Source: Lachnospiraceae bacterium (lineage in GTDB: Bacteria; Bacillota; Clostridia; Lachnospirales; Lachnospiraceae). From it: a stretch of DNA of 64,000 nucleotides. The position numbers and the translations under genes are program-made. Of this stretch, positions 4,335 to 30,666 are shown piece after piece. The stretch is from the NCBI GenBank assembly GCA_017438305.1, contig JAFRVX010000114.1:2602-66601 (forward strand). Direction: 5' to 3'. The notes below the pieces were generated by a model. It ran no database searches, was not told the DNA's origin, and worked only from the letters and a program-made list of their open reading frames with translations. Within the stretch, counting starts at the first letter, position 1. Each line of letters begins with the position of its first letter.

Positions 4335-5207
4335 ATGAATATCGTTCGTTACTACACCATAGGAACCTTTACTTTTTCCCTCTCCTGTCCGGAAGAACTG
4401 CCGGTTCCGGCAAATATGGCCTTATTCGAGCTTCACGAACTTGCCGTTTCGAAGGAGCAGGAACCTTATCTCTATACAGTCTCCTTGACAAAGGGCTTTC
4501 CTCTTCCGTCCGGCTCCCCCGATATCATCCGGGAAGATATGGCGGTCTGGCTCCGGAACGGCCTGGAGACCCGGTATCTGTGGTTTCATCAGCACCGCCA
4601 TGAAGGTCCCTATGCCTGTGTACGGGAAGAGGATTCACGGCACACGGCCGTCTTCATCGATCCCCGGGTCACGGAGGATTTTCTGTATGACACAGTCTTC
4701 CTGTCGGTTCTTGCCTTGGAAAAACATATGATCGGCTGCGATGCCCTGATCCTGCACAGCGCCTACATCGTCCATGAAAACCGGGCCATCCTCTTTACGG
4801 CCCCCGCGGGTACCGGAAAAAGCACCCAGGCAGGTCTCTGGGAAAAGTACCGGGGCGCCTTCCAGGTCAACGGAGACCGGACCCTGCTTCAGAAGATCGG
4901 CGGATGCTGGTATGCCCGGGGCTGGCCGGTGTGCGGTAGTTCTGAGATCTGTCACAATCTGGATACCTCCCTTTATGGCATCGTTGTCCTGAGCCAGGGA
5001 GAAAAGAACGAAGCGGTCAGAAGAGAGGCAGGCAAAGCCTTTCAGGAAATTTATCCCCAGATCACGGTGAACCGCTGGAACAGGGATTTCCAGTTAAAGG
5101 CCATGGATCTTACGGAAGCCCTGCTTCGGGAGATCCCGGTTTATCATCTCTCCTGCACCATATCCGAAGAAGCGGTGGAATGCCTGGAAAAGGTGCTGTT
5201 TCCCTGA
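4335..5207 (+). CDS. HPr kinase/phosphorylase C-terminal-domain-like P-loop protein
   Basis: 290 aa. LHSAYIVHENRAILFTAPAGTGKSTQAGLW is a Walker A motif in the context typical of HprK homologues found in peptide-modification clusters. Confidence 0.6.
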   Translation: MNIVRYYTIGTFTFSLSCPEELPVPANMALFELHELAVSKEQEPYLYTVSLTKGFPLPSGSPDIIREDMAVWLRNGLETRYLWFHQHRHEGPYACVREEDSRHTAVFIDPRVTEDFLYDTVFLSVLALEKHMIGCDALILHSAYIVHENRAILFTAPAGTGKSTQAGLWEKYRGAFQVNGDRTLLQKIGGCWYARGWPVCGSSEICHNLDTSLYGIVVLSQGEKNEAVRREAGKAFQEIYPQITVNRWNRDFQLKAMDLTEALLREIPVYHLSCTISEEAVECLEKVLFP

Positions 5208-5258
5208 AACCGTTCCGCCCGGGATCAACAGACAGCCTATACAAATTCCGGAAAGATC

Positions 5259-5300
5259 CTTACGAACACTGATAAGATTCTTACAAACACTGATAAGATT
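5259..5300. promoter_or_regulatory. 21-bp direct repeat x2 (CTTACNAACACTGATAAGATT)
   Basis: Copies at 5259-5279 and 5280-5300, in the 146-bp gap between the HprK-like gene and the PqqD gene. Confidence 0.45.
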
Positions 5301-5353
5301 CTCCTGAAGCAGATAAACCCTCTGAAATACCAAAAACGAAAGGAAGCCGAAAC

Positions 5354-5692
5354 ATGCCCGGTGAAGCCGCCATTTTCGAAAACATCTCCTGGGACAGTGT
5401 CCTCACGACCAGCCCGGACTACATTTTAAGACAGATCGGCGAGGAGACCATCCTGGTCCCCGTCGTTTCCGAAGGCCCCCTGGCCAATACCATGATGACC
5501 ATGAATGATACCGCCTGCTGGCTGTGGAACTCCTTCGCGAAAGGCGCCTCTTCCCAGGATGTGCTGAAAGCCGCCGTCCGGGAATATGACGACGGCACCG
5601 CGGACCACAAAGCCATTACGGAAGGCGTATACCGGTTCGTCCTGGAAAGCCTTGCCCTGGGAACGCTGATCCTGAAAGAGGACGCTTCATGA
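5354..5692 (+). CDS. PqqD-family protein (RiPP recognition element type)
   Basis: 112 aa. ILRQIGEETILVPV...MNDTACWLWN...SQDVLKAAVREY fits the PqqD pattern. SD is AAGGAAG. Its stop overlaps the next start (ATGA). Confidence 0.7.
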   Translation: MPGEAAIFENISWDSVLTTSPDYILRQIGEETILVPVVSEGPLANTMMTMNDTACWLWNSFAKGASSQDVLKAAVREYDDGTADHKAITEGVYRFVLESLALGTLILKEDAS

Positions 5693-6819
5693 ATCCTGCG
5701 GAAGGCGCCGCAACGGAAGAACAGCGGCTGCTGTTTCTTGGCGCGGAACGGAAAATGCCCCTCAACGGCAGTCTGGAGCTGTCTCCTCTCTGCAACATGG
5801 ACTGCGAAATGTGCTACGTCCGGCTGTCTAAGGAAGAAGCTTCCGCCTGCGGCCGCCTGAAGACCGCCGATGAATGGCTTCAGCTGGCGGAACAGCTGAA
5901 GGAAGCCGGCGTGCTCTTTCTGCTGCTTACCGGCGGAGAGCCACTTTTATATCCAGACTTTAAAAGGCTTTTTGTCTCCCTCCGGAAGATGGGCTTTATC
6001 CTGACCGTCAATACCAACGGAACCCTTCTGGACGAAGCCTGGGCCGATTTTTTCAGGGAAAACCGGCCGCGCCGCATCAATCTGACCCTCTACGGGACTT
6101 CTGACCTTGCTTATCAGAAGCTCTGCCATTATCCCGACGGCTTTGAAAAAGCGCTGAAGTCAGCGCGTTATCTTAAAGACCGGGGAACCGACGTCCGCTT
6201 CAGCTACAGCCTTACCCGGGAGAATCTTTCCTCCCTTAACGCTTTTTTCGATCTTTCCGAAGAGCTCGGCATCCCCTGCAGCGTCGATACCTATATGATG
6301 CCTGTCACCAGGGAACGGAACAGACCCTATGCCCTGGCTTCCCGGGTCTCTCCGGAAGAGGCCGCAGCCTGCACCCTTGAGATCAGAAGAAGAGCCTGCG
6401 GCTCACCGGAAAAGTTTGCCGGATACTGCAGAGATACCTTGTCGTCTCTGGAAAAAGCGGCAGCTTATATTAATGCGCATCCTTCTTCCAAAGAGCCTGT
6501 GCCCTCCTCCTGTCTTGCGGGAAGATGTTCCTTCTCCGTAAGCTGGCTGGGGACCCTGCATCCCTGCGTCATGCTGACGCACCCGGAGATCAACGTTTTC
6601 GAAACGCCCTTTGCAGAAGGCTGGAAGATCCTTACGGAAGGCATGGGATCCGTGTATCTGAACGGGACCTGCGCTTCCTGTGAAAAGCGCCTGATCTGCG
6701 AGTTCTGTCCCGCCGCCGCCCTGTCGGAGACCGGAGATATAAACAAAGCTCCCGAATACCTGTGCCGGTATTCGGAAGCCCTGGTAAAACTTATGAAAGA
6801 AATCCTGTCTGATCTCTGA
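5689..6819 (+). CDS. radical SAM / SPASM-domain protein (peptide-maturase type)
   Basis: 376 aa. CNMDCEMC (CX3CX2C), LLLTGGEPLL, and a C-terminal Cys cluster CLAGRCS...HPC...CASCEKRLICEFC typical of SPASM auxiliary Fe-S domains. Confidence 0.8.
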   Translation: MNPAEGAATEEQRLLFLGAERKMPLNGSLELSPLCNMDCEMCYVRLSKEEASACGRLKTADEWLQLAEQLKEAGVLFLLLTGGEPLLYPDFKRLFVSLRKMGFILTVNTNGTLLDEAWADFFRENRPRRINLTLYGTSDLAYQKLCHYPDGFEKALKSARYLKDRGTDVRFSYSLTRENLSSLNAFFDLSEELGIPCSVDTYMMPVTRERNRPYALASRVSPEEAAACTLEIRRRACGSPEKFAGYCRDTLSSLEKAAAYINAHPSSKEPVPSSCLAGRCSFSVSWLGTLHPCVMLTHPEINVFETPFAEGWKILTEGMGSVYLNGTCASCEKRLICEFCPAAALSETGDINKAPEYLCRYSEALVKLMKEILSDL

Positions 6820-12161: not shown

Positions 12162-12192
12162 AACCAAAGAGCCTGAAGTTAAAAATGGTTAT

Positions 12193-12221
12193 ACCGCCGG
12201 CTGTGCAGCCGGCGGTTTTTC
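12193..12221 (+). terminator. rho-independent terminator after the GPH symporter gene
   Basis: ACCGCCGGCTG / CAGCCGGCGG hairpin followed by TTTTT. Confidence 0.75.
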
Positions 12222-12421
12222 TATGCTTCTCCCCTGTATTGTTCATGAACCCCGGAAGGAGAACTCCCGATTTTTTATACCTTCTCTACGGAATTTATCT
12301 TGTGATGGAAAAAAGATTTTTGTAAAATAAAAAAAAGATTACCATAGGCTGTTCAGTAATCCGCCATGTTCATAAAGGAGTATCATTACATTAAAGCAGA
12401 AGCAGGAGGTGTAAATAATCT

Positions 12422-14245
12422 TTGGAAACAGGTGAAATGCTGGATTTCTTACAGGATATCGATTCCATACAGCTGACAGATCTCTGCCGGGGAATATGTT
12501 CAAGGAGTATGATTTCCAAAGTAAAAAACGGAGAAAGAGAACTGAACTGTATCTGTTTCATTCAGATTATGAAGCGGCTGTTTGTTTCTCCGGACAGGTT
12601 TTTTGTCCTGTTGGACAGGCGTGGATATGCCTACCTGAAATGGCTTTTTGACTGCCAGCGGCTGATTGCTGCAGGAAATTATAGTGAACTGGAAAACTGC
12701 CTGTCTGCTCCGGTTCTTGAAGAGCTGTACAAGGCTTATCGGCTTGTGGTGAAGCACGATGAAGCTTTTTTCCGTTATGTTATCGAACGGGAGCTTCATC
12801 ATGATCTGGAAGCAGCCTATAGACAGATAAAAGAAGCTGTCGAATATATGCTTTTATTGGATGAGAGTGAAGCGCTTCTGCCAGGCCGTTACAGCACGGA
12901 AGAAATAAATCGTTATATGAATTACCTGGAACTGTCCGTTACTTTAGGTTACCGGTCAGCCATGACAGCAAAAGGAAGCTTTGACCAGCTTCTTCAGATG
13001 GCTTCCGTGTCTGAAAGAGATCCCCGCGAAGAAGCCCGACTGTACCCCCGGATCGTCTGCGGAACACTGTATGCCATAGGCAAAGTCTATCCGCCCGAAA
13101 TAAAGATGGGAATGATCACCCGGGCATTGGCAACACTCCGCAAAATCAGGGAATGCTTCGATATGGCACCCCTCCTTGCTCAGTTGGCAGACACAGCAGA
13201 AGAACTGAAGGCCCCGGAAACGAAACGCTGCTGCAACTGGCATAAGGCCATTACCCTATCCTATGAATTAGGTGGCATTTCTCCGGAATATAATCCTTAT
13301 GATTCCCATGATGTCAATCAGCAGCTGTATCGGATACATGAGTATCTGCTGCGGGGCCGCATGGCGGCTCAGGATAAAGCCGGCGGGAGAATGACCCAGG
13401 AGGATGCAAGCGCCGAGATCATGGAAGCAAGCAATTATTCCCGGATCGAGACGGGTTATTCCGACCCTTCAGATTACCATTTTCGCCGTCTTGCCACCCG
13501 TATGGGTCTTTCTTCCGAAAGGTATCAGGGAGAAATCACCACCCCGTACATCACGGATTTTTCTCTGGTTACGGAAGTGAGAAGGGCTATTCTTGAAGAT
13601 GATCCCGAACGTTTTGACCGGGCTTACGCGGTTCTTAATCATCATCTGGACCGCCATTATAAAGAAAACCGCCAGTTTCTCGACCAGGTCATAGTTAACA
13701 GGAGACTGTTGGCCGGCATGATCACTGAAGAAAAAGCCATTGAGGAGTGGATAGCTGCTTTAAATCATACGATTCCTTACCAGGCAGATGAAGTCCATGT
13801 TTATTCAGAGCTTGAAATAGAAACCATTTTTAAAATAGTTAGATCAAAACGCCGTCTGGGAATGATGAATGATAATGACATCAAAATACTGGAAAGCATT
13901 CTGGTCAGCGAACAATCCGTTTACAAATACATTTCATCCTGGAACCGGGTAGGGCTGGTTAAACGCCTTCTGGCAGGCATTTATCAGGTGGCGGGAAACA
14001 ATGAAAAGAGCATGGATCTTTGTTATCATTGCTTAAATGAAATGATGCAGGATCAGGATGCTTCATTATTAATTGAAATACTGGACATTCTTGCCGAAAA
14101 CATGGTCCATACATATCCTGTTAAATCAGAAAGGCTAATGCAGATCGCCTATTGGATAGGCGATCTATATCAGGAAGAAGGGAGCAAAAAAGCAATAAGT
14201 TCCCTTATCAAAAGATGCTTTTCGAAGCCAATTCAAGATTTATGA
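12422..14245 (+). CDS. large HTH transcriptional regulator with two Xre-like HTH segments plus helical repeat regions (RNPP/Rgg-like, tandem fusion)
   Basis: 607 aa with a TTG start 12 nt after AGGAGG. HTH-like LTDLCRGICSRSMISKVKNGERELN near residue 20. A second one, MTQEDASAEIMEASNYSRIETGYSDPSDYHFRRLATRMGL, near residues 324-363. Each is followed by a long alpha-helical-looking region. Confidence 0.6.
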   Translation: METGEMLDFLQDIDSIQLTDLCRGICSRSMISKVKNGERELNCICFIQIMKRLFVSPDRFFVLLDRRGYAYLKWLFDCQRLIAAGNYSELENCLSAPVLEELYKAYRLVVKHDEAFFRYVIERELHHDLEAAYRQIKEAVEYMLLLDESEALLPGRYSTEEINRYMNYLELSVTLGYRSAMTAKGSFDQLLQMASVSERDPREEARLYPRIVCGTLYAIGKVYPPEIKMGMITRALATLRKIRECFDMAPLLAQLADTAEELKAPETKRCCNWHKAITLSYELGGISPEYNPYDSHDVNQQLYRIHEYLLRGRMAAQDKAGGRMTQEDASAEIMEASNYSRIETGYSDPSDYHFRRLATRMGLSSERYQGEITTPYITDFSLVTEVRRAILEDDPERFDRAYAVLNHHLDRHYKENRQFLDQVIVNRRLLAGMITEEKAIEEWIAALNHTIPYQADEVHVYSELEIETIFKIVRSKRRLGMMNDNDIKILESILVSEQSVYKYISSWNRVGLVKRLLAGIYQVAGNNEKSMDLCYHCLNEMMQDQDASLLIEILDILAENMVHTYPVKSERLMQIAYWIGDLYQEEGSKKAISSLIKRCFSKPIQDL

Positions 14246-14410
14246 GTTTTTTCCTTTGGAAACGTCTATCTCTTCAACAATTATGATATCCGCCTGCAGT
14301 TCATCTGAAGTATTATGCAGCGGATAACTTATGATACCTGTTTTTACCGGTGAAAACAGGACTGCTGCAGAAAATATAAATGCCAGGATTCTCGTGAATA
14401 TAGCCATCAT
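14240..14410 (-). CDS. small exported peptide (56 aa), candidate signalling pro-peptide
   Basis: ATGATG start 6 nt after a perfect AAGGAGG. Sequence MMAIFTRILAFIFSAAVLFSPVKTGIISYPLHNTSDELQADIIIVEEIDVSKGKNS has a hydrophobic signal-like N-terminus and a polar/acidic C-terminus. Convergent with the regulator, and their 3' ends overlap. Confidence 0.55.
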   Translation of the reverse strand: MMAIFTRILAFIFSAAVLFSPVKTGIISYPLHNTSDELQADIIIVEEIDVSKGKNS

Positions 14411-14553
14411 TAGACGCCTCCTTACTTGTTGATAATTCAAGCGTAAGAGGTTTTCCCGAAAAGCTCCATGTCCTCACTGTCACGAGGTGTTGACTGAAAC
14501 AGCATGGACAATAGTTTTTTCATATGATAGCATTATGATGCGCGTAATAATAC

Positions 14554-14565
14554 GACTTATAAGTC
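14554..14565. promoter_or_regulatory. perfect 12-bp palindrome GACTTATAAGTC (candidate operator)
   Basis: Read directly. It lies in the divergent intergenic region between the 56-aa peptide gene and the 130-aa secreted-protein gene. Confidence 0.35.
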
Positions 14566-14663
14566 TTTAAAAGACAACTGACGAAGAGTTATACAGAGGC
14601 CGTTTTCAAAAAGAAAACAAAGATTACTCCCCTGTATCTAAATTGTCAAGAACGGAGGTATTG

Positions 14664-15056
14664 ATGAAAATTATCAGAAAAATAATCGCTGTTGCTGCTT
14701 TGATGGGTATTTTATTCGGTGTAACAGCGGCTGCAGATTCGCGTAGTTACTGGTTCCCATTCCCTTCATATGGTGTAGGCAGTATGTGCTACTCCGAACT
14801 GGTAAACCCTAAATCCACTTCAGCACCAAGTGTAAAATCCAGTGTGCAGGTCCATGGTACATGTTATTTCCTAAGCAGCAGCAGGACAGCTAGTGATCAG
14901 GATACCAACATAGTTACTATCCCCACCAACAGTCTGGCCAAATATCCATTTACCTGGACAGACAATTCTTCCTCATCCTACTACCTGATAGGTTATCCTG
15001 ATATTTATTCAGGTACATGGAGTGATTATACCGGAATAGGAACCTGGGTAAACTAA
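14664..15056 (+). CDS. small Sec-secreted protein, Ser/Thr/Tyr/Gly-rich (about 105-aa mature)
   Basis: GGAGG-5 nt-ATG. Signal peptide MKIIRKIIAVAALMGILFGVTAAA/DS. The mature part has 2 Cys and ends GTWSDYTGIGTWVN. No family recognised. Confidence 0.65.
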   Translation: MKIIRKIIAVAALMGILFGVTAAADSRSYWFPFPSYGVGSMCYSELVNPKSTSAPSVKSSVQVHGTCYFLSSSRTASDQDTNIVTIPTNSLAKYPFTWTDNSSSSYYLIGYPDIYSGTWSDYTGIGTWVN

Positions 15057-15083
15057 CCGAAGACATTCGCTGATCATACAAAG

Positions 15084-15137
15084 CTGACAGTATCGGCGGC
15101 AGAACAAGCTGCTGATACTGTCAGTAATTGTGTTTTC
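15084..15137 (+). terminator. strong hairpin / partial terminator after the secreted-protein gene
   Basis: 14-bp stem CTGACAGTATCGGC (15084-15097) / GCTGATACTGTCAG (15111-15124) with one G-T pair, followed by TAATTGTGTTTTC. Confidence 0.6.
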
Positions 15138-15185
15138 AATGGTTTTCGATAGTTTGAAGGCATTATCCTATAGAGGTCTTATTCT

Positions 15186-15956
15186 ATGTTAAGATCATTT
15201 TCAGTCCAGATAAAAAGAGCTCTGTCACCAAGACTGCTTCTGCTTTCTTTTGCTGCCGCAGCACTTCAGCTGCTGTCGGCGGCTCCCTTTATCAAAACCG
15301 ATCAGGTTTCTTCTGTCTGGTATGTCCTGTTCAACAGCCAGATGACCGGCATAAATTTCTTTACCATCTATATTCTCCCGGTAATGGTTTATGCCGTTAC
15401 GCTGGTAAAAGAATCGGAAACCCGCGCGTCGGATTATTATATCATCCGAACAGGCGTGGGGCGATACACGCTCTCTAAAATTCTGGCTTCCGCAACAGGT
15501 GGATATCTCCTGGTTTTTCTGGAATTATTGATTTGTATGACAGCGCTGAAAGCAGCCGGATTTCCATGGTATACCTTCAGATCCGATGGAACTCCCTATT
15601 CCGCAGCCATGGAGCAGGGGAAGGTCATTTATGGTTTTTTCATGTTCCTTCTGGACATGGGCTGGGGCGGGGCGGTTGTTTCCGTTTTTGGTCTGACCGT
15701 ATCGGTTTTCATTGAAAATTCACTGGCTGCTGCGGCAGCACCGCTGGCAGTGACCCTGTTTCTTTCCAGAGTCGTGGATCAGTTGAAGCTGCCTTTTGAT
15801 TTTAACCCCATGATGTGGATGAGATATGTGGATTACAGCGACCGGTTTACTGCCCTGGACGGAGTCCTGTATAAGTCAGCAGTCAGCCTGATCGTCATGA
15901 CGATACTCTCTGTTATAGGGATCAGGGGAATGAAGAGGAGGCAGGACCGTGCCTGA
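15186..15956 (+). CDS. ABC-2-type polytopic membrane protein (LanE/G-like)
   Basis: 256 aa with about 6 hydrophobic segments. Size and topology resemble lantibiotic-immunity permease subunits. No motif-level proof. Confidence 0.5.
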   Translation: MLRSFSVQIKRALSPRLLLLSFAAAALQLLSAAPFIKTDQVSSVWYVLFNSQMTGINFFTIYILPVMVYAVTLVKESETRASDYYIIRTGVGRYTLSKILASATGGYLLVFLELLICMTALKAAGFPWYTFRSDGTPYSAAMEQGKVIYGFFMFLLDMGWGGAVVSVFGLTVSVFIENSLAAAAAPLAVTLFLSRVVDQLKLPFDFNPMMWMRYVDYSDRFTALDGVLYKSAVSLIVMTILSVIGIRGMKRRQDRA

Positions 15957-16821
15957 AATAAGAAAAATACGGCGTCTGGTCTATATCAGTTTTGCCAGGC
16001 ATATCACTAACCGGAAGACGATTCTGATAGCGGGTATGGCCGTAATCTTTGCTTTTTATAATTATATGCCGCTGACCAGGCTGGCCATGTTTTACCATGA
16101 AAACATACCACCGGTGTCCTTTGTCTTTCACCTGAGTCATTATCTTGTGCTGTGCTTTCATGCAGCCGCATCTGTGCTTTTGTTTGCTGATGTGATGAAA
16201 GAAGATGGATTCACCCTGTGGACGGTTATCAGGAGCGGAAAGACGGAGTATATTCTGGCTCAAAGCCTGTATGTGCTGCTGATGTCAGCAGTTTACGTAC
16301 TTTTCCTTTATCTGCTCTCTCTGGTCTTCACCTTGCCCGTATTGGGTTCCATAAAGGAATGGGGCCCGTTTATGAAGCGGATGAGCCAGGATATGACGAG
16401 TCTTGTACAGGAGTCGGGAATCAGCGGCCATTCACTTTATGTTGCACCGGTGATTATCCGGCATTTTACACCGGCAGGTGCGCTGCTTTTTGCTTTTCTG
16501 ATCATGTGGCTGGATGTTTCTTTTACCGGGATGATGATACTTTTTTTCTCCTGCGTTATCAGCCGGTCCTTTGCCACAGCTTTTGGCGGTGTTTTGGTAT
16601 CCATAGCCATCTTTGCCACAGTTTCCGGCATGCTGCTCTTCGGAACCAGACTGCTTTACGCCTCTCCCATGTCCTGGAACAATATTAATAATATCGATTA
16701 TGACAGGAGCGGTGCGTACCCGTCTCCGGAATACGTTGTCACGTTTCTGACTGTGGGGATCATCATGTTTGCCGTAGGTTCCTATATCGGATACAGACAT
16801 AAAGAAGCCATAAAAGGATAA
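15949..16821 (+). CDS. ABC-2-type polytopic membrane protein (second subunit)
   Basis: 290 aa. GTG start 7 nt after GAGGAGG, overlapping the preceding stop. Multiple TM segments. Confidence 0.5.
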   Translation: MPEIRKIRRLVYISFARHITNRKTILIAGMAVIFAFYNYMPLTRLAMFYHENIPPVSFVFHLSHYLVLCFHAAASVLLFADVMKEDGFTLWTVIRSGKTEYILAQSLYVLLMSAVYVLFLYLLSLVFTLPVLGSIKEWGPFMKRMSQDMTSLVQESGISGHSLYVAPVIIRHFTPAGALLFAFLIMWLDVSFTGMMILFFSCVISRSFATAFGGVLVSIAIFATVSGMLLFGTRLLYASPMSWNNINNIDYDRSGAYPSPEYVVTFLTVGIIMFAVGSYIGYRHKEAIKG

Positions 16822-16902
16822 TAATGGGGCAGAACAGCCTGTCTGTTCCGCAGGTTACTCGCGGATCAGTCAGGAAAAAGCTGCCGGAGGTGATTAACGG
16901 TT

Positions 16903-18012
16903 ATGAAGAAGAGAATGATCGTGCTACTCCTGGTGATTACACTGGGAACCGTTTCTTGTGGAAAACAATCGCAGGAGACAACAGTTTCGGACGAAACGCC
17001 TTCTGTTGTATCCTCCGGACTTGTGACAGAGGCTGAGTTTCCTGAAGATTATCCGGAGAGTCTGGACACCTATCAGGCCTGTTTTTTTGAGCCTGATCTA
17101 GAAAAAGTCACCGCTGCTCTGATGCTCAATGACCCGGATGAGACCTTTATATCAGATTCCGGTGATTATCATGCGCTTTACGGGGAAGAAGAACATCTGG
17201 TAGTCAATACTAAGGACTGTATTATCGGTTATATCCGGACAGACGCTGAAACCGAAGAAGAACGGGAATTCAAAAAGCACGTCCGGGGACTGAAACCCAT
17301 GGCTACCGAATTCTATCGATTCGGGAATAATGCGGGTCTGAATCCGGGGCATGGGAAATTCAAGGATTTCGACCAGGAGGCAGTGCTTTCTTTTTCTTCA
17401 AAAAAAGAAGTGACAGAACGGTTTTTCAATCTTATAGAAAACGCAGGATTTCCGGAAATGGATGTCCGGTATGTCTATCCAAGGAATAAGGATATTCTGA
17501 CAGAGAACCTTAAAATATACAACGGGTTTTCTTCTATCGAAGAAAACCAATATGTCTTCACGGAAGAAGATGAAGATTATTATCTGATGGCGGTTCAGAA
17601 AATAAACGGTATTCCTCTGTGCTGTCATCGTTGGATCCTGGATCCCAGATCGGAATATCAAACGGATACCTATCTGGAGATGATTTATACAAAGGATTCC
17701 GGAGTTGATGAGATCAACGCCTGGCATTTATTCGACATAAAAGAAAAGACAGGGGTGAGAAAAATCCGCAGTCCCCTGGATGCGGTAAGGGAATATGAAA
17801 GGCTGTATGGCGAAAATGAATCCTTAAAGGGAACAACCCTCAGTTCGGTGGAACTGAATTATATTGTAACTCAGAAAGACGGAAACCTGACCGCGCTTCC
17901 CTGCTGGATACTGGTAATGTGGAAGGACCGTCAGTTATCCGAGGATGTAAGTATGAGACAGTATACGGTTATCGCCATAGATCCCGAGACCCTGGAGATT
18001 TATAACAAATGA
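16903..18012 (+). CDS. lipoprotein of unknown function
   Basis: 369 aa. MKKRMIVLLLVITLGTVSCGKQ carries a lipobox (LGTVS-C). SD is GGAGGTG. Confidence 0.6.
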   Translation: MKKRMIVLLLVITLGTVSCGKQSQETTVSDETPSVVSSGLVTEAEFPEDYPESLDTYQACFFEPDLEKVTAALMLNDPDETFISDSGDYHALYGEEEHLVVNTKDCIIGYIRTDAETEEEREFKKHVRGLKPMATEFYRFGNNAGLNPGHGKFKDFDQEAVLSFSSKKEVTERFFNLIENAGFPEMDVRYVYPRNKDILTENLKIYNGFSSIEENQYVFTEEDEDYYLMAVQKINGIPLCCHRWILDPRSEYQTDTYLEMIYTKDSGVDEINAWHLFDIKEKTGVRKIRSPLDAVREYERLYGENESLKGTTLSSVELNYIVTQKDGNLTALPCWILVMWKDRQLSEDVSMRQYTVIAIDPETLEIYNK

Positions 18013-18158
18013 TCTTAAAACAGATTTATATCATCAGGGTAAGATAGTTGCTGAAAACATGCAACTGTGTATCATTAGCCGGGGCAAACCCTTTTGACCC
18101 CGGCATCAGGCAAACAGCGGCTGTATCATGGAATCCATCCGGACAAAGGGACGATAAA

Positions 18159-18791
18159 ATGGCATATATAGAAATCAGGGAATTAGTGAAAGAATTCAAA
18201 GAAATCCGGGCACTGGACCAGGTTTCACTGTCCTTTGACCAGGGGCAGATACACGGCATCATAGGCCGGAACGGGTCCGGAAAGACCGTCATGCTGAAAT
18301 GCATCTGCGGCTTCATGAAGCCAACATCAGGGGAAATTCTGGTTGGGGGAAAGAAAATAGTTCCGGGAAAAAGACAGGCTATGGGCATTATCATAGAGGT
18401 CCCCGGTTTTATTGACCAGAAAAGCGGGCTGAAAAACCTTGAATATCTATATGGGCTGAATCACAGACCGGACAGAAACAAACTGAAGAAAACCATGGAA
18501 AAGGTCGGTCTGGACCCTGAAAACAAAAAGCCGGTGGGAAAGTATTCCCTGGGGATGAGACAGCGTCTGGCAATAGCACAGGCCATTATGGAAGAGCCGG
18601 AACTGCTGCTTCTGGACGAGCCCATGAACGGTCTGGACAATAAAGGCGTGGAAGATATCCGGGAGCTGCTGAAAAAACTGGCGAAAGAAGGAAAAACCAT
18701 CATTCTGGCTTCCCACAGCCGGGAGGACATTTCATTACTTTGCGATACCGTGACCGAACTGGATCATGGAAAGATAATCTTGACAGCCTGA
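18159..18791 (+). CDS. ABC transporter ATP-binding protein (ABC-2/LanF-like)
   Basis: Start taken at MAYIEIRELVKEF. Walker A GRNGSGKT, signature YSLGMRQR, Walker B LLLLDEP. Confidence 0.8.
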   Translation: MAYIEIRELVKEFKEIRALDQVSLSFDQGQIHGIIGRNGSGKTVMLKCICGFMKPTSGEILVGGKKIVPGKRQAMGIIIEVPGFIDQKSGLKNLEYLYGLNHRPDRNKLKKTMEKVGLDPENKKPVGKYSLGMRQRLAIAQAIMEEPELLLLDEPMNGLDNKGVEDIRELLKKLAKEGKTIILASHSREDISLLCDTVTELDHGKIILTA

Positions 18792-18831
18792 CCGGCATCC
18801 CGGTGCAGCTGCATACCATTGTTTTACTGTA

Positions 18832-18870
18832 AAGCCCGGACTTATCGAAGTCCGGGCTTGTGTTTTTTTT
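18832..18870 (+). terminator. rho-independent terminator between convergent genes
   Basis: AAGCCCGGACTT-ATCG-AAGTCCGGGCTT followed by GTGTTTTTTTT. Confidence 0.8.
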
Positions 18871-18891
18871 CCCTGTTAGCGATAAACTGAT

Positions 18892-21846: not shown

Positions 21847-21920
21847 GGACCGGCCTGTTATTACCAGTTCATGGACCGGCCTGTTTTTACCAGGTCAGGA
21901 ACAGTCCTGTTTCTTACCAC
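21847..21920. repeat. 26-bp tandem repeat x about 2.7 (GGACCGGCCTGTTNTTACCAGNTCA)
   Basis: Copies at 21847-21872 and 21873-21898, plus a degenerate third copy that runs into the stop codon of the CPBP gene. Confidence 0.75.
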
Positions 21921-23035
21921 GTCTCTGTATAAGGCTGTTCCTGAAGATTTTCCTCGTTATGGAAGAACGGCACCCGTCTTCCCAGAAACAGTGCTGCTGC
22001 CGCAAATACCATAAACAGCACCGCGTAAATGAAAAGATACTTTTCCGGATCCAGGATCCCTCCCAGGAACATGCCCAGGAAATTATTGAACATGTGGCAG
22101 AGGATGCTGGGGATCACGGAATTATACTTATACCCGATAAAGCCCCACAGAAGGCCCATGGGAAGCACATAGATGCCCTGAATGGGATTCATATGGAAGA
22201 TGCTGAAAAGGACGCCGCTTATGATCACGCAGCCCGCCAGCCCGAAGACTCTTCTGGAACGTTGGAGGATGATCCCCCGCATGGCCAGTTCTTCACAGAT
22301 GGGCGCCAGAAGCACCGCCGCCAGAAGCCCCAGGATCTCGTTCTTTCCCAGGGTCAGGTACATGGTTTCATTTAAAGCTTCGGCCTCATACGGGAAGAGG
22401 CCCGCAGCGATGATCTCCAGCATGATGGCCAGAGAAAAACACGCAATATTCGAGGTCAGCAGGAAGAGAAGGCCTGCCGGGTTCTTAAGCTTTGGCCCCA
22501 CCGGTTCATACCGCCCTTCCAGTCTGGCCTTCCGCACATATCCGCGGTAATACCAGATCAGTACAAAAATGGTTCCTGCAACTACCGAAATGATCTCGAC
22601 CCGGGCCAGAAGGGAAGTCGATGTCAGCAGTTCATTATAGGCATTGATAATTGCTTCGTAGTCCCCGCCGTTTTCCATCACCAGCCGGAAAAGAGACGGC
22701 AGGATCCCCGCGGCGCCTGCCGCGGACTGCACCAGGATCACGGCAATCATCACCCAGACACAGAAGAAAACCGTCCCGATCTTTCCGGGCTGAGCCTTGT
22801 AGGCCTGCCGGTAAACCGCCCGGTCCGATACCTGCGGCTGGGGCGTATAAGTCCTGGCCGGCTCATCTGTCCTGTTTATCGTATAAGGGATCTGCGTTAC
22901 CTCTTCACGATCCGTTCCGGTTCCCGTATAAGGGATCTGAGACGCTTTTTCGCGATCCGTTCCGGTTCCCGTATAAGGGATCTGAGATACTTCTTCGCGA
23001 TCTGTTCCGGTTTCAGCGGGGCCATATTCACTCAT
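21914..23035 (-). CDS. CPBP-family intramembrane metalloprotease (CAAX/Abi type) with a repetitive N-terminus
   Basis: Start at MSEYGPAE (GGAGG-5 nt-ATG). CEELAMRG (EExxxR), FSIFH and HMFNN motifs. Three 15-aa repeats TGTDREEVSQIPYTG at the N-terminus. Confidence 0.75.
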   Translation of the reverse strand: MSEYGPAETGTDREEVSQIPYTGTGTDREKASQIPYTGTGTDREEVTQIPYTINRTDEPARTYTPQPQVSDRAVYRQAYKAQPGKIGTVFFCVWVMIAVILVQSAAGAAGILPSLFRLVMENGGDYEAIINAYNELLTSTSLLARVEIISVVAGTIFVLIWYYRGYVRKARLEGRYEPVGPKLKNPAGLLFLLTSNIACFSLAIMLEIIAAGLFPYEAEALNETMYLTLGKNEILGLLAAVLLAPICEELAMRGIILQRSRRVFGLAGCVIISGVLFSIFHMNPIQGIYVLPMGLLWGFIGYKYNSVIPSILCHMFNNFLGMFLGGILDPEKYLFIYAVLFMVFAAAALFLGRRVPFFHNEENLQEQPYTETW

Positions 23036-23085
23036 AAAAAACCTCCGAAGTCTGTTATGTTCTCTCATCATAACAGACTTCGGAG
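23036..23085 (-). terminator. rho-independent terminator whose 3' arm contains the SD of the CPBP gene
   Basis: 18-bp arms at 23068-23085 and 23041-23058 (CCTCCGAAGTCTGTTATG / CATAACAGACTTCGGAGG in mRNA sense) with a 9-nt loop. TTTTT follows, then ATG directly. Confidence 0.7.
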
Positions 23086-23244
23086 GGATGTGCAAGAATT
23101 ATCCGGCATCAGGTTAGTGTCAGCTCCGGATTTCCTCTCACCGGCGGTTCATTAATCCTTTACTCTTTGCCGGGCAGAAACGGCCGGATATCTTTATAGG
23201 GAATTAGCAGGTTCAATCGCGGAAGATATGTTTTATCTGTCTGT

Positions 23245-23880
23245 TTACAGACTGTCTAAGAGATTTCTGATGATCTCCAATGCCTGATTTACAGCAGCAT
23301 CTCTTTCTTCTGATGAAATAATAAGATTATTACTGCTTTTCTTGAAGTAATAGTTGATCACGTACTTGAGTTCTCCCTGTTTTATTGTTCCAAATAGAAT
23401 ATCAGGTTGTAACGGATCTTTTTCTATATAGGTAACACAATACTCCATAGTTTTATCATCAGCAGTAAGAAGTTCTTTCCCAAACCGGGTAATCAGATTG
23501 CTCGCCTGCTGATATTGTTCGTGAATATCATTAAAGTATATATCTACGGATATATTGTCCCCATTCTCCAGTCCGGCATACTCAGACAAATACAGCCATG
23601 TGTTTCTGTCTGACACATAACCGGTGCCATCCAGAGGAAGGAACAAGGTGAATTGAAGATTTTTCAATTCATCCTCATGTTTGATATACCATTGAATGAG
23701 GCAATCTTCTCCAAAAAGTCTCAGAGCTTTTTCAGGATCTTTTTCTGTATACTCAGATATATTTTCTGTAGGTGATGGACCATGTCTGTGAGAAGATTCA
23801 AACCAGATAACGCCAATTCCCAAACAGCCTGATACAACCAGTACAATTACCAGTATCGTAAGATTTTTTCTTTTATTCAT
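23245..23880 (-). CDS. lipoprotein / membrane-anchored protein of unknown function
   Basis: 211 aa. MNKRKNLTILVIVLVVSGC has a lipobox-like VSG-C. AT-rich coding sequence. Confidence 0.55.
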   Translation of the reverse strand: MNKRKNLTILVIVLVVSGCLGIGVIWFESSHRHGPSPTENISEYTEKDPEKALRLFGEDCLIQWYIKHEDELKNLQFTLFLPLDGTGYVSDRNTWLYLSEYAGLENGDNISVDIYFNDIHEQYQQASNLITRFGKELLTADDKTMEYCVTYIEKDPLQPDILFGTIKQGELKYVINYYFKKSSNNLIISSEERDAAVNQALEIIRNLLDSL

Positions 23881-23941
23881 ATTATAGTCCTTATTTATTT
23901 GCTATATCCTTGGTTTAGAGACTTCTGATTTGTTTTCTGGT

Positions 23942-25234
23942 TTAATCAGTTCCTTCCTCCTGCTCCTTTTCGGATGGGACTGCAAAGGACTGTATGAGCT
24001 CGCTTTCATCCCCGTACCAAAGGATCTTATAAGGACATTCCTTTCCATGAATACTTCCAATTTCCTTTTTATCAAAGATCAGAAGCCCCCACCGCTGACT
24101 TCCTTTTTCATTATAGACAACATATTGATAGTCTTTACCGCCTATCGGGATTTCCCATGCATATCCTATGTCCGGGATCTTATATTCATCCACAATGTTG
24201 AAGTCTGTATCGTAAACTACACATTTTCTTTCCCTCTCGGGGAATTCCCGGTTAATACTCGTGTTGTCAAGGTAAAAGTAATTCCCATCAGACAGGGGTG
24301 TATTATATTGTTCCACAGATGAAAGGACTGTTCCTTTTGATCCTCCGTAAACATCAGATTCATAGATCTCTGTCAGGTATATTGAGTTCTCCATTCCGTT
24401 CCGGGGCTCTCTGTATAGTTTTCCGTCAAATAATACAAGGTCATCAAACTCAAGGTCAGTTTTTTCTATTTCTCCTGTACGCATATTGTAGACCTGAGAT
24501 AATATGTTTGGCCCGTTTATCATTGTGAACCAGACATAATCACCCAGGGCCCGCAACGGGAGACATCCATGCTGTAAGCCGTCATAGTAGATTTCTTCTT
24601 CTGTCATGATTTTCTTTTCAAGGTCGATTCTGTTAAAACATGTTTTTGCTGCAATTCCCTCTTCTGAAGTAACAAACACCGAAGAATAATAGAACAGTGT
24701 ACCTCTATGAATTAGCGGAAACGCCATATCCACTGTTCTCCATATCATTTCTTTTGAAGAACCGTCCGTGGATACTTTGACGACACATGTTTTTCGGTTT
24801 TCAGGATCATTATCTAACCTATCATAACAGATATAAAGATCATCCTTATACAGCATCAGACTTATAGGAGCAAATCTCCCATTCTCATCATAAAAGGCAT
24901 AGTCAAGACAGGCATTACACTCCCGTTTCTTTTCAGGATCCCTTTCCTCATCATGAAGACAGTTTGCCTTTGAACAAAGAGGGATAATCGCACCTCCTTG
25001 CCTGTAAGTATATAAGAAATCATTATGAACAAAGATACAGCCTTCTTCAATCTCCTGGATTTTCGGGTAGATTAGATTCGGCGTCATCATATAACACTGC
25101 CAATCCGTTTCAAAGTTGTAGTCATCCTGAAAAACCATCTTTCTCTCCGTTGAAGAGGAGCTTTCGGTTGCTCCTGTAAAATCTTTACTGCTGCCGCATC
25201 CGGAGAAAAGGATGATTCCAAGTAAGAAAGCCAT
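23942..25234 (-). CDS. large lipoprotein, paralogue A (possible beta-propeller, DUF5050-like by eye)
   Basis: Start placed at MAFLLGIILFSGCGSS (lipobox); the track ORF extends to 25318 inside the upstream gene. Paralogous to 26647-27945. Confidence 0.6.
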   Translation of the reverse strand: MAFLLGIILFSGCGSSKDFTGATESSSSTERKMVFQDDYNFETDWQCYMMTPNLIYPKIQEIEEGCIFVHNDFLYTYRQGGAIIPLCSKANCLHDEERDPEKKRECNACLDYAFYDENGRFAPISLMLYKDDLYICYDRLDNDPENRKTCVVKVSTDGSSKEMIWRTVDMAFPLIHRGTLFYYSSVFVTSEEGIAAKTCFNRIDLEKKIMTEEEIYYDGLQHGCLPLRALGDYVWFTMINGPNILSQVYNMRTGEIEKTDLEFDDLVLFDGKLYREPRNGMENSIYLTEIYESDVYGGSKGTVLSSVEQYNTPLSDGNYFYLDNTSINREFPERERKCVVYDTDFNIVDEYKIPDIGYAWEIPIGGKDYQYVVYNEKGSQRWGLLIFDKKEIGSIHGKECPYKILWYGDESELIQSFAVPSEKEQEEGTD

Positions 25235-25265
25235 TCTCAAAGGGAATGTCCGGCTGAATAAGTGC

Positions 25266-25688
25266 TTAACCCTGAGAGCCACTGCTTGTTTCCCCTGTCC
25301 ATGTGCCTGCTGTTCCAATCACTTTATGTGTCGCAATGGAACCTGCGGCAGAGTAGGGATATGGAATAGATATTGTGACGCTGACCGGATCAATATCTAC
25401 CCCACTGTTTGTTGCAGGAGTATAGTTATACCTGAAAACATGACTGTCATAGGCTGCATAAGCAATTAAAGAAACCTCTTTAGTCGTATGAAGTTTGTGT
25501 TTCGTATTAGCGCTTACAGACGAAGGCGTATAACCGGTGGAACCTGATGCGTAGGAACCATCAATCATATACGACGACTGCACAAAACTCGCGGCATTCA
25601 CGGGGGTGGACGTAAATAATCCGGCTGCCATAATCACCGCACCGGCAATACCAGCTGTTTTCTTTATGAAACTTCTTATTCCTTCCAT
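25266..25688 (-). CDS. small Sec-secreted protein, paralogue A (140 aa)
   Basis: Signal peptide ...STPVNA/ASFVQ. The mature part is Ser/Thr/Tyr/Gly-rich. Paralogous to 27938-28360. Confidence 0.65.
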   Translation of the reverse strand: MEGIRSFIKKTAGIAGAVIMAAGLFTSTPVNAASFVQSSYMIDGSYASGSTGYTPSSVSANTKHKLHTTKEVSLIAYAAYDSHVFRYNYTPATNSGVDIDPVSVTISIPYPYSAAGSIATHKVIGTAGTWTGETSSGSQG

Positions 25689-25869
25689 ACCTAAAAACCC
25701 TTTTCTTCTTAAAGATACTGGTACGAATCAATTAAAACTTTCTAGATCGCCGTACTATACGACAGACTCTCTTTGACCTGTTACCAACCATTGTTAACAC
25801 AGAACAGATTATATGCAATTATTGAACTATTTGATAGACTCTGGTATTACCCTCCTTCTCAATGATGGA

Positions 25870-26529
25870 TTACTTCCCGTTAACTTCAACTTTTCCCCGG
25901 CATCGTTCTAAATATAAGTATTCAACTATCGGTTTGGACACCGGATCTGTATCTTCGGCATCGGCATCCGGTGACCAGGTCTGACTCTGACCTTCAACCA
26001 GGATCTCCGCCCTTACTCCTATAAATTCATCCGCACCTTCCGGAAGCTCTATCTCCAATAACACAGGTTCGAAAATATTCCTGCTTGTCACCGTCTGTTT
26101 CCTTACATAGTTATCCCCTTCTTTTGTATAATAACCATATATCGTTGCAACAGCAGTATCACTATATCCTATAAGAACCTGGCCGTGTTCTTCATAATGC
26201 GATGTGTCAGGCATATCTAGGATCACTTCCACAGATGCTTTATCACGTGACAAGTTTACCTCGCCTTCAATCCCCGGTACATGATCAGAATACCTGTTTT
26301 TTTTCTTAAGCTCCCCTGTAAACAATATATCCTCAGGCTCTGTATATTCTATAAATGGCTCCATGTTCAGCGAAGTTTTTGGAATGGTGGAAGAATCCCG
26401 TTTAGCATAATCAGAAATGACAATGAGCGCGCCGTTATTCTCCATGTTTCCGCAGCCTGATAACAGCATCGCTCCAAGCAAGAGGATAACTCCAATGTTA
26501 ATAAATATACTGTTCCTGTTTTTTTGCAT
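25870..26529 (-). CDS. lipoprotein of unknown function
   Basis: Start at MQKNRNSIFINIGVILLLGAMLLSGCGN (lipobox LLSG-C). 219 aa. Confidence 0.55.
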   Translation of the reverse strand: MQKNRNSIFINIGVILLLGAMLLSGCGNMENNGALIVISDYAKRDSSTIPKTSLNMEPFIEYTEPEDILFTGELKKKNRYSDHVPGIEGEVNLSRDKASVEVILDMPDTSHYEEHGQVLIGYSDTAVATIYGYYTKEGDNYVRKQTVTSRNIFEPVLLEIELPEGADEFIGVRAEILVEGQSQTWSPDADAEDTDPVSKPIVEYLYLERCRGKVEVNGK

Positions 26530-26646
26530 AACGGTCACTCTTTCCTCTGGGTGCACCCATACATCCGGCCAATTCCATTTATAACATTCTGGGAATACAC
26601 AGCAACTCGTGGAGTTATTGCTGCCTGTACCCTCCGTTCTCTGGTG

Positions 26647-27945: not shown

Positions 27946-28360
27946 AGTGGCCGCTGAAAGTTGAACCGCTCCATACACCGGTCGTTCCGGTTACTTTATG
28001 TGTTGCTTTTGATCCTGCTCCATAATAAGGAGATGGTATGGAAACAGATACACTAACAGGATCGAGATCTACTGCGCTTCCCGTAACAGGTGTACTATTG
28101 TACTGAAAATAGTATCCCGAATAACTGGCATATGCCGTCAAAGACACTTCCTTTGTCGTATGCAGTTTGTGTTTTGTGTTGGCACTCACCGATGATGATG
28201 TGTAACCGGTAGATCCTGATGCATAGGCACCATCAATCATATATGCTGACTGTACAAAACTTGCGGCATTCACCGGGGTGGACGATATAAACCCGACTGC
28301 CATGATCACCGCACCGGCAATACCGGCTGCTTTTTTTATATAGTTTCTTTTTCTTTTCAT
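27938..28360 (-). CDS. small Sec-secreted protein, paralogue B (140 aa)
   Basis: Start at MKRKRNYIKKAAG, preceded by AAAGGAGAAA. Signal peptide ...STPVNA/ASFVQ. Confidence 0.7.
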   Translation of the reverse strand: MKRKRNYIKKAAGIAGAVIMAVGFISSTPVNAASFVQSAYMIDGAYASGSTGYTSSSVSANTKHKLHTTKEVSLTAYASYSGYYFQYNSTPVTGSAVDLDPVSVSVSIPSPYYGAGSKATHKVTGTTGVWSGSTFSGHYD

Positions 28361-28415
28361 GATCAGCTTTCTCCTTTGCAAAGGTCCGTTGCACATTAAT
28401 TTGTTTTCCTCCTGT

Positions 28416-28445
28416 ATTATAAACATCACCCATAAACAGTGTCAA
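28416..28445 (-). promoter_or_regulatory. sigma-A type promoter TTGACA-N18-TATAAT for the secreted-protein/lipoprotein operon
   Basis: Minus-strand reading GCGTATTGACACTGTTTATGGGTGATGTTTATAATACAGG. The -35 is at 28440-28445 and the -10 at 28416-28421. Confidence 0.65.
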
Positions 28446-28450
28446 TACGC

Positions 28451-28519
28451 TTCACTTATTCAACGTTTTTTTCACTTATTCGACATTTTCCACATAGATA
28501 ACGCGTCAGATAAGTGAAA
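28451..28519. promoter_or_regulatory. three copies of TTCACTTAT(T/C) (two direct, 20-bp period; one inverted): candidate LytTR boxes
   Basis: TTCACTTATTCAAC at 28451-28464. TTCACTTATTCGAC at 28471-28484. The inverted copy GATAAGTGAAAA at 28508-28519 sits directly upstream of TTGCAG-N17-TATCCT, which faces the response-regulator gene. Confidence 0.5.
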
Positions 28520-28597
28520 ACAGTTGCAGGATCACCAAAAGATGTGTATCCTTACAACCATAACAGCTATGAATAATCTCCCCTTGAGGTTTTATCT

Positions 28598-29332: not shown

Positions 29333-29364
29333 GCGATTATTACGCGATTGATTGGAGATTGATT

Positions 29365-30657: not shown

Positions 30658-30666
30658 ACGCAAACT

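Follow-up and report, generated by a model that had tools for sequence, protein, structure and literature searches.

What is encoded by a short AT-rich island in the genome of a Lachnospiraceae bacterium, and is it, as an initial annotation proposed, a quorum-regulated, bacteriocin-like locus? We analyzed a 64,000-nucleotide (nt) stretch of contig JAFRVX010000114.1 (assembly GCA_017438305.1), here called the window, in which this island, island A, spans positions 12217 to 18831. The island holds a gene for a regulator, a gene for a 56-amino-acid (aa) peptide, and genes for a small Sec-secreted protein (SSP), two putative permeases (PERM1 and PERM2), a lipoprotein (LIPO), and an ATP-binding cassette (ABC) ATPase. 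Based on sequence similarity and gene order across genomes, we regard it as firmly established that the last five genes are a copy of a previously undescribed cassette conserved in Clostridia, and that the first gene of this cassette encodes a secreted β-sandwich protein. Our tentative reading, which falls a little short of what we would call probable, is that SSP is a new bacteriocin, proteinaceous in nature, whose producer is protected by the lipoprotein and the ABC proteins, and that in this genome the system has come under a MutRS-like pheromone switch.

A conserved five-gene cassette

We traced the cassette through 13 independent loci: the window, L017, L023, five GTDB genomes (L028 to L032, from a Lachnospiraceae metagenome-assembled genome [MAG], a Ruminococcaceae MAG, “Candidatus Heritagella caecorum,” Acetatifactor sp., and Lachnoclostridium sp.), and five metagenome loci (L033 to L037). 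Sample labels (XIEF21-1 and STEW19-1) and the name of a rumen MAG, RUG12824, point to datasets from the ruminant gut or rumen. All of the loci were sampled with SSP as the query. The GTDB and metagenome scans were also motif seeded (with a 5-sequence subset) and recover only members with F[TS][WY]xSGYGG, which biases the sample. In 13 of 13 loci, within the reach of each contig, the neighbors of the SSP gene are homologues of LIPO, PERM1, PERM2, and/or the ATPase, and the gene immediately after SSP is always LIPO or PERM1. This linkage argues against the possibility, raised in the initial annotation, that the ABC set is a generic transporter unlinked to the secreted protein in other genomes. 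Upstream of SSP, we found only the ATPase (L017 and L034) or an extra LIPO copy (L030 and L033).

Gene order otherwise differs among the loci. LIPO is mostly the next gene after SSP. In the window, it comes after PERM2 instead, and in L030 it lies on both sides of SSP, giving two LIPO copies per SSP. L017 begins with the C terminus of a very similar ATPase and continues with SSP, LIPO, SSP, LIPO, and LIPO; L023 carries SSP and then LIPO; and PERM1 homologues are present in nine other loci. No glycosyltransferase, polymerase, or cell wall gene accompanies the cassette in any locus, and we found no described equivalent of the cassette in the literature. A strong, GC-rich stem-loop lies directly 3′ of SSP in all eight loci that were folded (z = −2.2 to −6.9), with its position kept and its sequence unrelated. 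The hairpin region of the window folds at −52 kcal/mol (z = −6.9 versus shuffles). This hairpin is a candidate partial terminator or mRNA stabilizer, and the layout is that of an operon in which the first gene is expressed strongly and the accessory genes behind it are expressed less.

A word-indexed search with SSP returned a 99% identical copy as its sole match. HMMER searches of 1.84 billion representative proteins recovered 19 further full-length relatives (∼125 to 150 aa; E = 3e-12 to 1e-3); the 20th match, P0004, is a repetitive 482-aa protein and was set aside as an artifact. The small protein, at first said to belong to no recognized family, is thus a member of an unnamed one, here called the SSP family, by both full-length similarity and synteny. 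Each family member combines a signal peptide with a mature part of ∼103 aa that is rich in aromatic residues. Their alignment shows the motifs Y.F.FP..GS, PYV, T.YFLSP, AT, FTW.SGYGG, Y.L.GYPD, and W..Y...G.W, with T66, L108, P112, Y122, and G126 invariant; the window SSP is a divergent member without the SGYGG motif. The two cysteines noted earlier are not a family trait, as the count ranges from 0 to 3 and neither cysteines nor a disulfide are conserved. None of the 20 family members matched a relevant Pfam family, and the family profile found no match among PDB sequences. The SSP homologues are not known structural proteins of the cell envelope, an identity that the initial annotation had named as one that would refute its proposal. 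A match of SSP to phrog_27179 (E = 9e-5) was treated as spurious because 1 of the 20 family members produced it.

Using the SSP family alignment, AlphaFold2 (AF2) predicted a confident β-sandwich (pLDDT 86.9; pTM 0.75). Foldseek comparison of this model with the PDB returned only generic jelly-rolls, including PirA, carbohydrate-binding modules (CBMs), and Ena fibers (best E = 0.009; TM-score of ∼0.5). A search of a viral library likewise gave generic β-sandwiches, among them one unnamed protein with an E value of 8e-4 and a TM-score of 0.46.

The other cassette proteins are similarly distant from described families. The PERM1 and PERM2 open reading frames (ORFs) overlap by 8 nt, and their transmembrane segments (∼6 in PERM1 and ∼6 to 8 in PERM2) were counted by a crude hydropathy scan. 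We found no Pfam match for the window permeases at an E value of ≤0.1, no relevant NCBIfam match for any of 12 permeases at an E value of ≤5, and no PDB chain matched by the permease profiles. Their earlier description as ABC-2-like proteins of the LanE/LanG type was not borne out, as they match no ABC-2 or LanE/LanG model. The two proteins have in common a loop motif after the second transmembrane segment, IR(T/S)G..Y, and hhalign comparison of their profiles detected weak N-terminal similarity (E = 0.002; probability, 13%). On this basis, PERM1 and PERM2 are probably transmembrane subunits that are paralogous to each other.

The window ATPase matches PF00005 with 109 bits, and the cassette ATPases form a conserved clade with 54 to 59% identity to it. 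For six of six cassette ATPases, the best NCBIfam model was TIGR03740 (lantibiotic protection), with scores below the cutoff (for the window ATPase, 177.6 bits against a cutoff of 309.75). The next-best models were DrrA, PmtC, and GldA, all ABC-2 exporters and all below their cutoffs as well.

An initial search with LIPO found clusters at 97% and 84% identity only. The lipoproteins of L017 and L023 nevertheless align with the window LIPO over their full length at 18 to 30% identity, with the lipobox cysteine and other residues invariant, and across 10 homologues the signal peptide and lipobox Cys19 are invariant. A profile of five lipoproteins finds no PDB chain at an E value of ≤1, and an AF2 model of LIPO built from three close sequences was too poor for fold comparison (pLDDT 34.6). 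The C-terminal ∼80 aa of LIPO resemble PepSY by eye, and single weak matches (E = 0.03 to 0.09) hint at FTP and YycI; none of these likenesses is claimed here.

It is firmly established that island A is foreign in composition and was horizontally acquired. Its GC content is 0.450, versus 0.538 ± 0.008 (minimum, 0.520) in 162 equal-sized windows that exclude this island and a second one described below. GC content at third codon positions (GC3) is 0.35 to 0.57 in the seven island genes versus 0.69 to 0.81 in the flanking ABC-F, MFS_2 symporter, esterase, and DUF6320 genes. Two terminator-like hairpins mark the edges: GC content falls from the left one onward and is back at 0.54 to 0.55 beyond the right one. 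The initial annotation had described this AT-richer interval between terminators, with its seven genes and internal hairpin in the order of Table 1 and with no modification enzyme or dedicated exporter, and in all of these respects it was accurate. We found no modification enzyme, dedicated peptide exporter, or exporter with a peptidase domain in island A, and no integrase, boundary direct repeats, or Rfam element. A plasmid search matched generic ABC ATPase fragments only, and PADLOC (antiphage defense) found generic ATPase similarity and matched no other island protein. A single N-terminal match to DUF6034 (E = 0.18), a family for which no paper was found, was dropped. Exact lookups of the flanking symporter and esterase genes found no island-free strain.

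Table 1. Features of island A and its borders (window coordinates)
Feature	Position	Strand	Remarks
Left terminator-like hairpin	12193..12216	+	10-bp stem, 8 GC pairs, then TTTTTCT; ends GPH/MFS_2 symporter gene
Indel module (regulator, 56-aa peptide gene, and SSP gene)	12357..15072		In window and L001-L004; absent from L011
Regulator, 607 aa	12422..14245	+	Cytoplasmic; two helix-turn-helix (HTH) modules
56-aa peptide gene	14240..14410	-	Convergent with regulator; candidate pro-pheromone
Intergenic region, 253 nt	14411..14663		Peptide gene (-) and SSP gene (+) diverge from it
SSP, 130 aa	14664..15056	+	Signal peptide of ∼27 aa; mature β-sandwich of ∼103 aa
Internal stem-loop	15083..15125	+	18-bp stem, directly 3′ of SSP gene
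PERM1, 256 aa, ∼6 transmembrane segments	15186..15956	+	Putative ABC transmembrane subunit
PERM2, 290 aa, ∼6 to 8 transmembrane segments	15949..16821	+	Putative ABC transmembrane subunit
LIPO, 369 aa	16903..18012	+	Lipobox Cys19; new family
ABC ATPase, 210 aa	18159..18791	+	ABC-2-exporter type
Right terminator-like hairpin	18832..18859	+	12-bp stem, then T-run; ends operon

Variation within and between lineages

We set the window against metagenome contigs from its own species. All ten contigs carry SSP unchanged (100% identity), and PERM1, PERM2, and the ATPase are ∼99% identical at the nucleotide level. Because synonymous divergence (dS) is 0.02 to 0.035 in these island genes versus 0.13 to 0.17 in the flanking core genes, island A is younger or more mobile than its surroundings. 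LIPO is the sole hypervariable gene of the island, with 79 to 93% nucleotide identity (87% alongside a dS of 0.41) and a ratio of nonsynonymous to synonymous divergence (dN/dS) of 0.2. When window positions 16900 to 18000 were aligned with L011, L012, and L015, divergence stayed within the LIPO ORF, with 98 to 100% identity on either side. As the divergence begins and ends at the borders of the gene, the pattern indicates allelic replacement. In L015, there are also two short patches of divergence, one near 16900 and one near 17200, and this contig is without the 73-nt spacer between PERM2 and LIPO (16827 to 16899).

The front of the island can also be absent. The first ∼125 nt of L011 correspond to window positions 12230 to ∼12355, and the match then resumes at ∼15075 and continues into PERM1. 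The regulator, peptide gene, and SSP are gone from this contig; the permeases, LIPO, and ATPase are kept; and the promoter region of the regulator is fused to PERM1. An imperfect 8-nt repeat flanks the indel module, reading GCTGTTCA to its left and GCTGATCA to its right. In the Acetatifactor locus L031, a 5′-truncated SSP remnant stands before an intact LIPO-PERM1-PERM2-ATPase set. These are two independent losses of SSP in which LIPO and the ABC genes persist, and it is firmly established that the payload can be lost. Several metagenome assemblies also break just past the SSP hairpin, at the ends of L001 to L004 and the starts of L012 to L014 (window positions ∼15130 to 15230), where contigs share exact 87-nt overlaps of k-mer length. 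Such breaks fit a branch in the assembly graph from coexisting strains with and without the regulator-peptide-SSP module.

Between lineages, we compared L029 and L030. Their promoter and signal-peptide DNA is 92 to 96% identical, whereas the mature part of SSP is 47 to 67% identical at the nucleotide level and 53% identical at the amino acid level. PERM2 and the ATPase are 92% and 97% identical in amino acid sequence, respectively, and PERM1 is a mosaic. The mature SSP has been swapped between the two loci behind a conserved promoter and signal peptide. It is firmly established that variation in the cassette is concentrated in its extracytoplasmic parts, namely, mature SSP, LIPO, and patches of PERM1.

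Regulation and possible functions

The regulatory genes of the window are specific to its island. The N-terminal HTH of the regulator (aa 16 to 66) has a single significant PDB match, a weak one to a MutR-family Rgg protein (E = 0.0045), where it aligns with residues 18 to 68 of the chain (10lg, 6w1e). The second HTH (HTH_3, PF01381; aa 324 to 364) scores 26.6 bits against a 23-bit cutoff, and hydropathy indicated no transmembrane segments. BLASTP comparison of the two halves of the protein found no similarity that would show a tandem internal duplication, and we describe the protein simply as having two HTH modules. One possibility is that the gene product (12422 to 14245) works as a “pseudo-dimer” in which two Rgg-like units are covalently fused.

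A strong ribosome-binding site, AAGGAGG, precedes the ATGATG of the convergent peptide gene by 7 nt, and the gene was called on seven metagenome contigs. Its 3′ end overlaps that of the regulator by 6 nt, and no terminator insulates the pair. The 56-aa product has a basic-hydrophobic N terminus, an S-P break, and the C-terminal sequence ADIIIVEEIDVSKGKNS, with a single hydrophobic segment at aa 1 to 19. As a lead only, the C-terminal segment ADIIIVEEID... resembles the short hydrophobic peptide (SHP) cores DIIIIVGG and DILIIVGG quoted in PMC3679016. The 253-nt intergenic region contains two promoter-like sites on the plus strand (14505 to 14533 and 14524 to 14551) and a weak palindrome (14511 to 14536), with no binding box identified, and may serve as a duet promoter with an operator.

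We found no homologue of the regulator in the other loci or elsewhere outside the species of the window. The regulator and peptide, initially annotated together with the ABC set as one system, are not part of what is conserved, and other loci carry other regulators nearby: an AgrC-like kinase in L032, an extracytoplasmic function (ECF) sigma factor with its anti-sigma factor in L034, and BlaI/BlaR1 in L031. In L034, the region upstream of the cassette (4727 to 6660) encodes the ECF sigma factor, an anti-sigma factor with a DUF4367-type C terminus (judged by eye), and a further secreted protein of 154 aa. In L031, inspection identified a BlaI/MecI-like repressor and a BlaR1-like (M56) membrane protein directly downstream of the ATPase (13607 to 15179), and a TelA-like gene upstream.

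The bacteriocin function that we propose rests on the architecture of the locus and on the population-genetic pattern; we infer antimicrobial activity, immunity function, pheromone processing, and binding of the peptide by the regulator. SSP would be an unmodified, bacteriocin-like effector of ∼11 kDa that is exported by the Sec pathway. LIPO would bind SSP on the outside of the membrane, protecting the producer, and a heterodimeric ABC-2-type exporter would expel it, a logic that would be that of LanI plus LanFEG made from unrelated protein families. The hairpin after SSP would permit high expression of SSP and lower but coupled expression of immunity. The regulator would sense the processed product of the convergent 56-aa peptide gene and activate both arms of the shared divergent region, such that the peptide autoinduces and SSP and immunity are turned on at high cell density. 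Tandem payload-LIPO pairs, orphan LIPO copies, immunity-only variants, and swapped mature domains together form the pattern that bacteriocin loci typically show. The broader proposal, that the SSP family is a new, Clostridia-wide class of unmodified, Sec-secreted ∼11-kDa β-sandwich bacteriocins with dedicated lipoprotein and ABC-2 immunity from undescribed families, wired here to a new tandem-HTH (pseudo-dimeric) Rgg/MutR-like pheromone receptor, is possible, and we hold it with clear doubt. The quorum-regulated, bacteriocin-like locus of the initial annotation thus retains the support of architecture, linkage, and population pattern, whereas its family labels do not stand as memberships.

Several observations weigh against the bacteriocin reading. 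We found no sequence or fold homology of the cassette proteins to a known bacteriocin, toxin, or immunity protein; the SSP fold is generic and CBM-like; and mature SSPs are near neutral (net charge, −3 to +6), whereas the usual bacteriocin is cationic. Pairwise dN/dS is 0.1 to 0.25 throughout, without an arms-race signal; fast positive selection was rejected on these values, and the variation is better described as that of old alleles exchanged by recombination. The alleles are also loosely matched. L030 and L033 have LIPO proteins that are 80% identical but SSPs that are 55% identical, L029 and L033 have SSPs that are 89% identical but PERM1 proteins that are 78% identical, and in the species of the window, identical SSPs appear with LIPO alleles of 100% and 84% identity (the 84% pairing is inferred from exact 87-nt contig overlaps). 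Strict covariation of SSP, LIPO, and PERM1 is unsupported. Regarding the switch, the Rgg/MutR-like HTH and the convergent peptide gene bear out part of the RRNPP-like label first given to the regulator; its atypical size (607 aa, twice that of RRNPP proteins) and two HTHs do not, and no tetratricopeptide repeat (TPR), Rgg C-terminal, or peptide-binding model matched it. Finally, the regulators near the L034 and L031 cassettes are envelope-stress types, which would also suit a resistance module.

In one alternative, the cassette is an envelope machine unrelated to antagonism: SSP would be a carbohydrate- or wall-binding accessory (CBM-like or an adhesin), the ABC-2 complex would export a lipid-linked glycan or lipid, and variation in the exposed parts would result from phage or host antibody pressure. 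Jelly-roll CBMs and PirA are the best structural neighbors of SSP, and the near-neutral, aromatic-rich mature protein would suit such a role. So would variation located in surface-exposed LIPO and SSP, alleles that are old, recombined, and under purifying selection, and the loose covariation of SSP with LIPO. We nonetheless consider this alternative unlikely, given that the structural matches are all weak (E ≥ 0.009; TM-score of ∼0.5), that no glycan or cell wall genes of the kinds listed above travel with the cassette, and that two lineages do without SSP while retaining the other cassette genes. A structural machine would also be unusual in having tandem SSP-LIPO pairs and orphan copies of LIPO.

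Persistence of the cassette without SSP in L011 and L031 could be explained if LIPO and the ABC proteins detoxify exogenous antimicrobial peptides or cell wall antibiotics, as do CprABC and orphan LanFEG/LanI, with SSP serving as a cofactor, decoy, or sensor. The closeness of the ATPase to lantibiotic-protection ATPases and the envelope-stress regulators nearby (ECF sigma and anti-sigma factors in L034; BlaI/BlaR1 and the TelA-like gene in L031) are consistent with this idea. It is, in our judgment, quite unlikely: where SSP is intact, it directly precedes LIPO or PERM1 and has its own hairpin, suggesting that it is the most highly expressed gene, and its mature domain is exchanged as an allele behind a kept signal peptide. 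Multiple SSP-LIPO pairs add to a pattern that a decoy or sensor role does not predict. A signaling or kin recognition system, in which secreted SSP is sensed by a variable LIPO and transduced by the ABC complex for strain-specific discrimination of self from nonself without killing, would account for ancient, recombination-shuffled allelic types of SSP and LIPO under purifying selection, which resemble pherotype or recognition loci, and for quorum-sensing-type regulators with the cassette in the window and L032, but we regard it as highly improbable, as the conserved cassette has no output domain (kinase or DNA binding), ABC-2 exporters have no precedent as receptors of an ∼11-kDa protein, and SSP-less variants keep a seemingly intact receptor set.

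Little is understood about how gut and rumen Clostridia engage in interference competition, and genome mining for bacteriocins relies on known precursor, modification enzyme, and immunity families. Mining by homology would miss this cassette because it matches no Pfam or NCBIfam model and, in PADLOC, shows generic ATPase matches only. If SSP is a bacteriocin, the cassette would represent a new bacteriocin class, a new family of immunity lipoproteins, and a new ABC permease pair, and the allelic series (swapped mature domains, hypervariable LIPO, and immunity-only strains) could be used to map specificity. Even if SSP has no antimicrobial role, abundant gut anaerobes carry in this cassette a surface-exposed system of five genes that is both conserved and mobile.

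The window contains a second AT-rich island (23200 to 30660; GC content, 0.41). On its minus strand, a small secreted protein is paired with a large lipoprotein twice in tandem. The two small proteins (140 and 163 aa) are 73% identical, and the lipoproteins (458 and 443 aa) are 67% identical; two further lipoproteins have 228 and 211 aa. Its neighbors are genes for a LytTR response regulator (28598 to 29332) and an AgrC-like GHKL kinase (29359 to 30657). The second island has no detectable homology to the families of island A and shows the same pairing of small secreted protein with lipoprotein, along with a quorum-sensing-type regulator. Between the islands (21914 to 23095, minus strand) lies a gene for a 393-aa membrane protein with N-terminal repeats of TGTDRE(E/K)(V/A)(S/T)QIPYT. 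Judged from the translation, its C terminus looks like a CPBP/Abi-type intramembrane protease; domains of this type are often linked to bacteriocin immunity.

Comparison with known systems

Lantibiotic self-protection by LanI and LanFEG (NisI/NisFEG and SpaI/SpaFEG) provides the first point of comparison. Both parts function in immunity, and NisI consists of two domains (residues 1 to 226) (PMC8538875). As in these systems, island A encodes a surface lipoprotein, anchored by a lipobox, beside one ATPase and two different permeases with ∼6 transmembrane segments each, and the set lies downstream of a candidate structural gene followed by a hairpin. The best model for the ATPase in all six cassettes examined is likewise that for lantibiotic protection. 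The differences lie in the families: the ATPase is below the TIGR03740 cutoff, the permeases match no LanE or LanG (MutE/MutG) model, and no lantibiotic precursor, LanB, LanC, LanM, or LanT is encoded in island A or its flanks. Structures of NisI and SpaI are in the PDB; the island LIPO, at 369 aa, is larger than either and has no sequence homology to PDB chains. The presumed cargo is also a folded protein of ∼11 kDa rather than a modified peptide of ∼3 kDa. Of the LanFEG/LanI-like set proposed at first, the layout remains, in the sense that the cassette may work like one, whereas membership does not, as no LanE, LanG, or LanI model matched and the ATPase scores 177.6 of the 309.75 bits required.

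Lactococcin 972 (Lcn972) operons were the other precedent suggested initially. In both cases, the product is Sec dependent, unmodified, and β-rich and is encoded first in a short operon with membrane proteins and an ABC ATPase, and neither has a processing enzyme or dedicated exporter. Assignment to the lactococcin 972 type nevertheless fails: 0 of 20 SSP family members match PF09683 (Lcn972) at an E value of ≤1, TIGR01653 and TIGR01654 are unmatched in the window, and the island ATPase scores 114.3 bits against TIGR03608, for which the cutoff is 254.85. The Lcn972 structure is not among the top 50 Foldseek matches of the SSP model. Mature Lcn972 has ∼66 aa, compared with ∼103 aa for the mature SSP of the island, and to our knowledge the Lcn972 operon has no lipoprotein, whereas LIPO is part of the island operon.

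PirA, component A of the Photorhabdus/Vibrio binary toxin, and the jelly-roll CBMs share with SSP a small all-β sandwich of ∼100 aa (3x0t and 7fcn; TM-scores of 0.46 to 0.59). These matches are weak (E = 0.009 to 0.016; 9 to 11% identity) and too generic to indicate homology or a common function, and no PirB partner was found.

The regulatory genes most resemble those of streptococci. In the MutRS systems that control mutacin operons, the mutS gene comes after mutR in convergent orientation, and mutS and mutA share a “duet promoter” (PMC11848300); group III Rgg/SHP loci have a convergent regulator-peptide arrangement as well (PMC3679016). Island A has the same convergent peptide gene 3′ of a regulator, a region shared with the payload gene, and immunity genes downstream. 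Its peptide, like the SHPs, combines a basic-hydrophobic leader, a helix breaker, and an acidic-then-hydrophobic core, DIIIV. It differs in having 56 aa and a hydrophilic C-terminal tail, whereas the SHP precursors listed in PMC3679016 have 22 to 26 aa, and the regulator has 607 aa and two HTHs, compared with 284 aa for the matched MutR-family PDB chain. Moreover, island A resides in a member of the gut or rumen Clostridia rather than in a streptococcus, and a tandem-HTH regulator with a convergent peptide gene would extend the MutRS-like architecture outside the streptococci.

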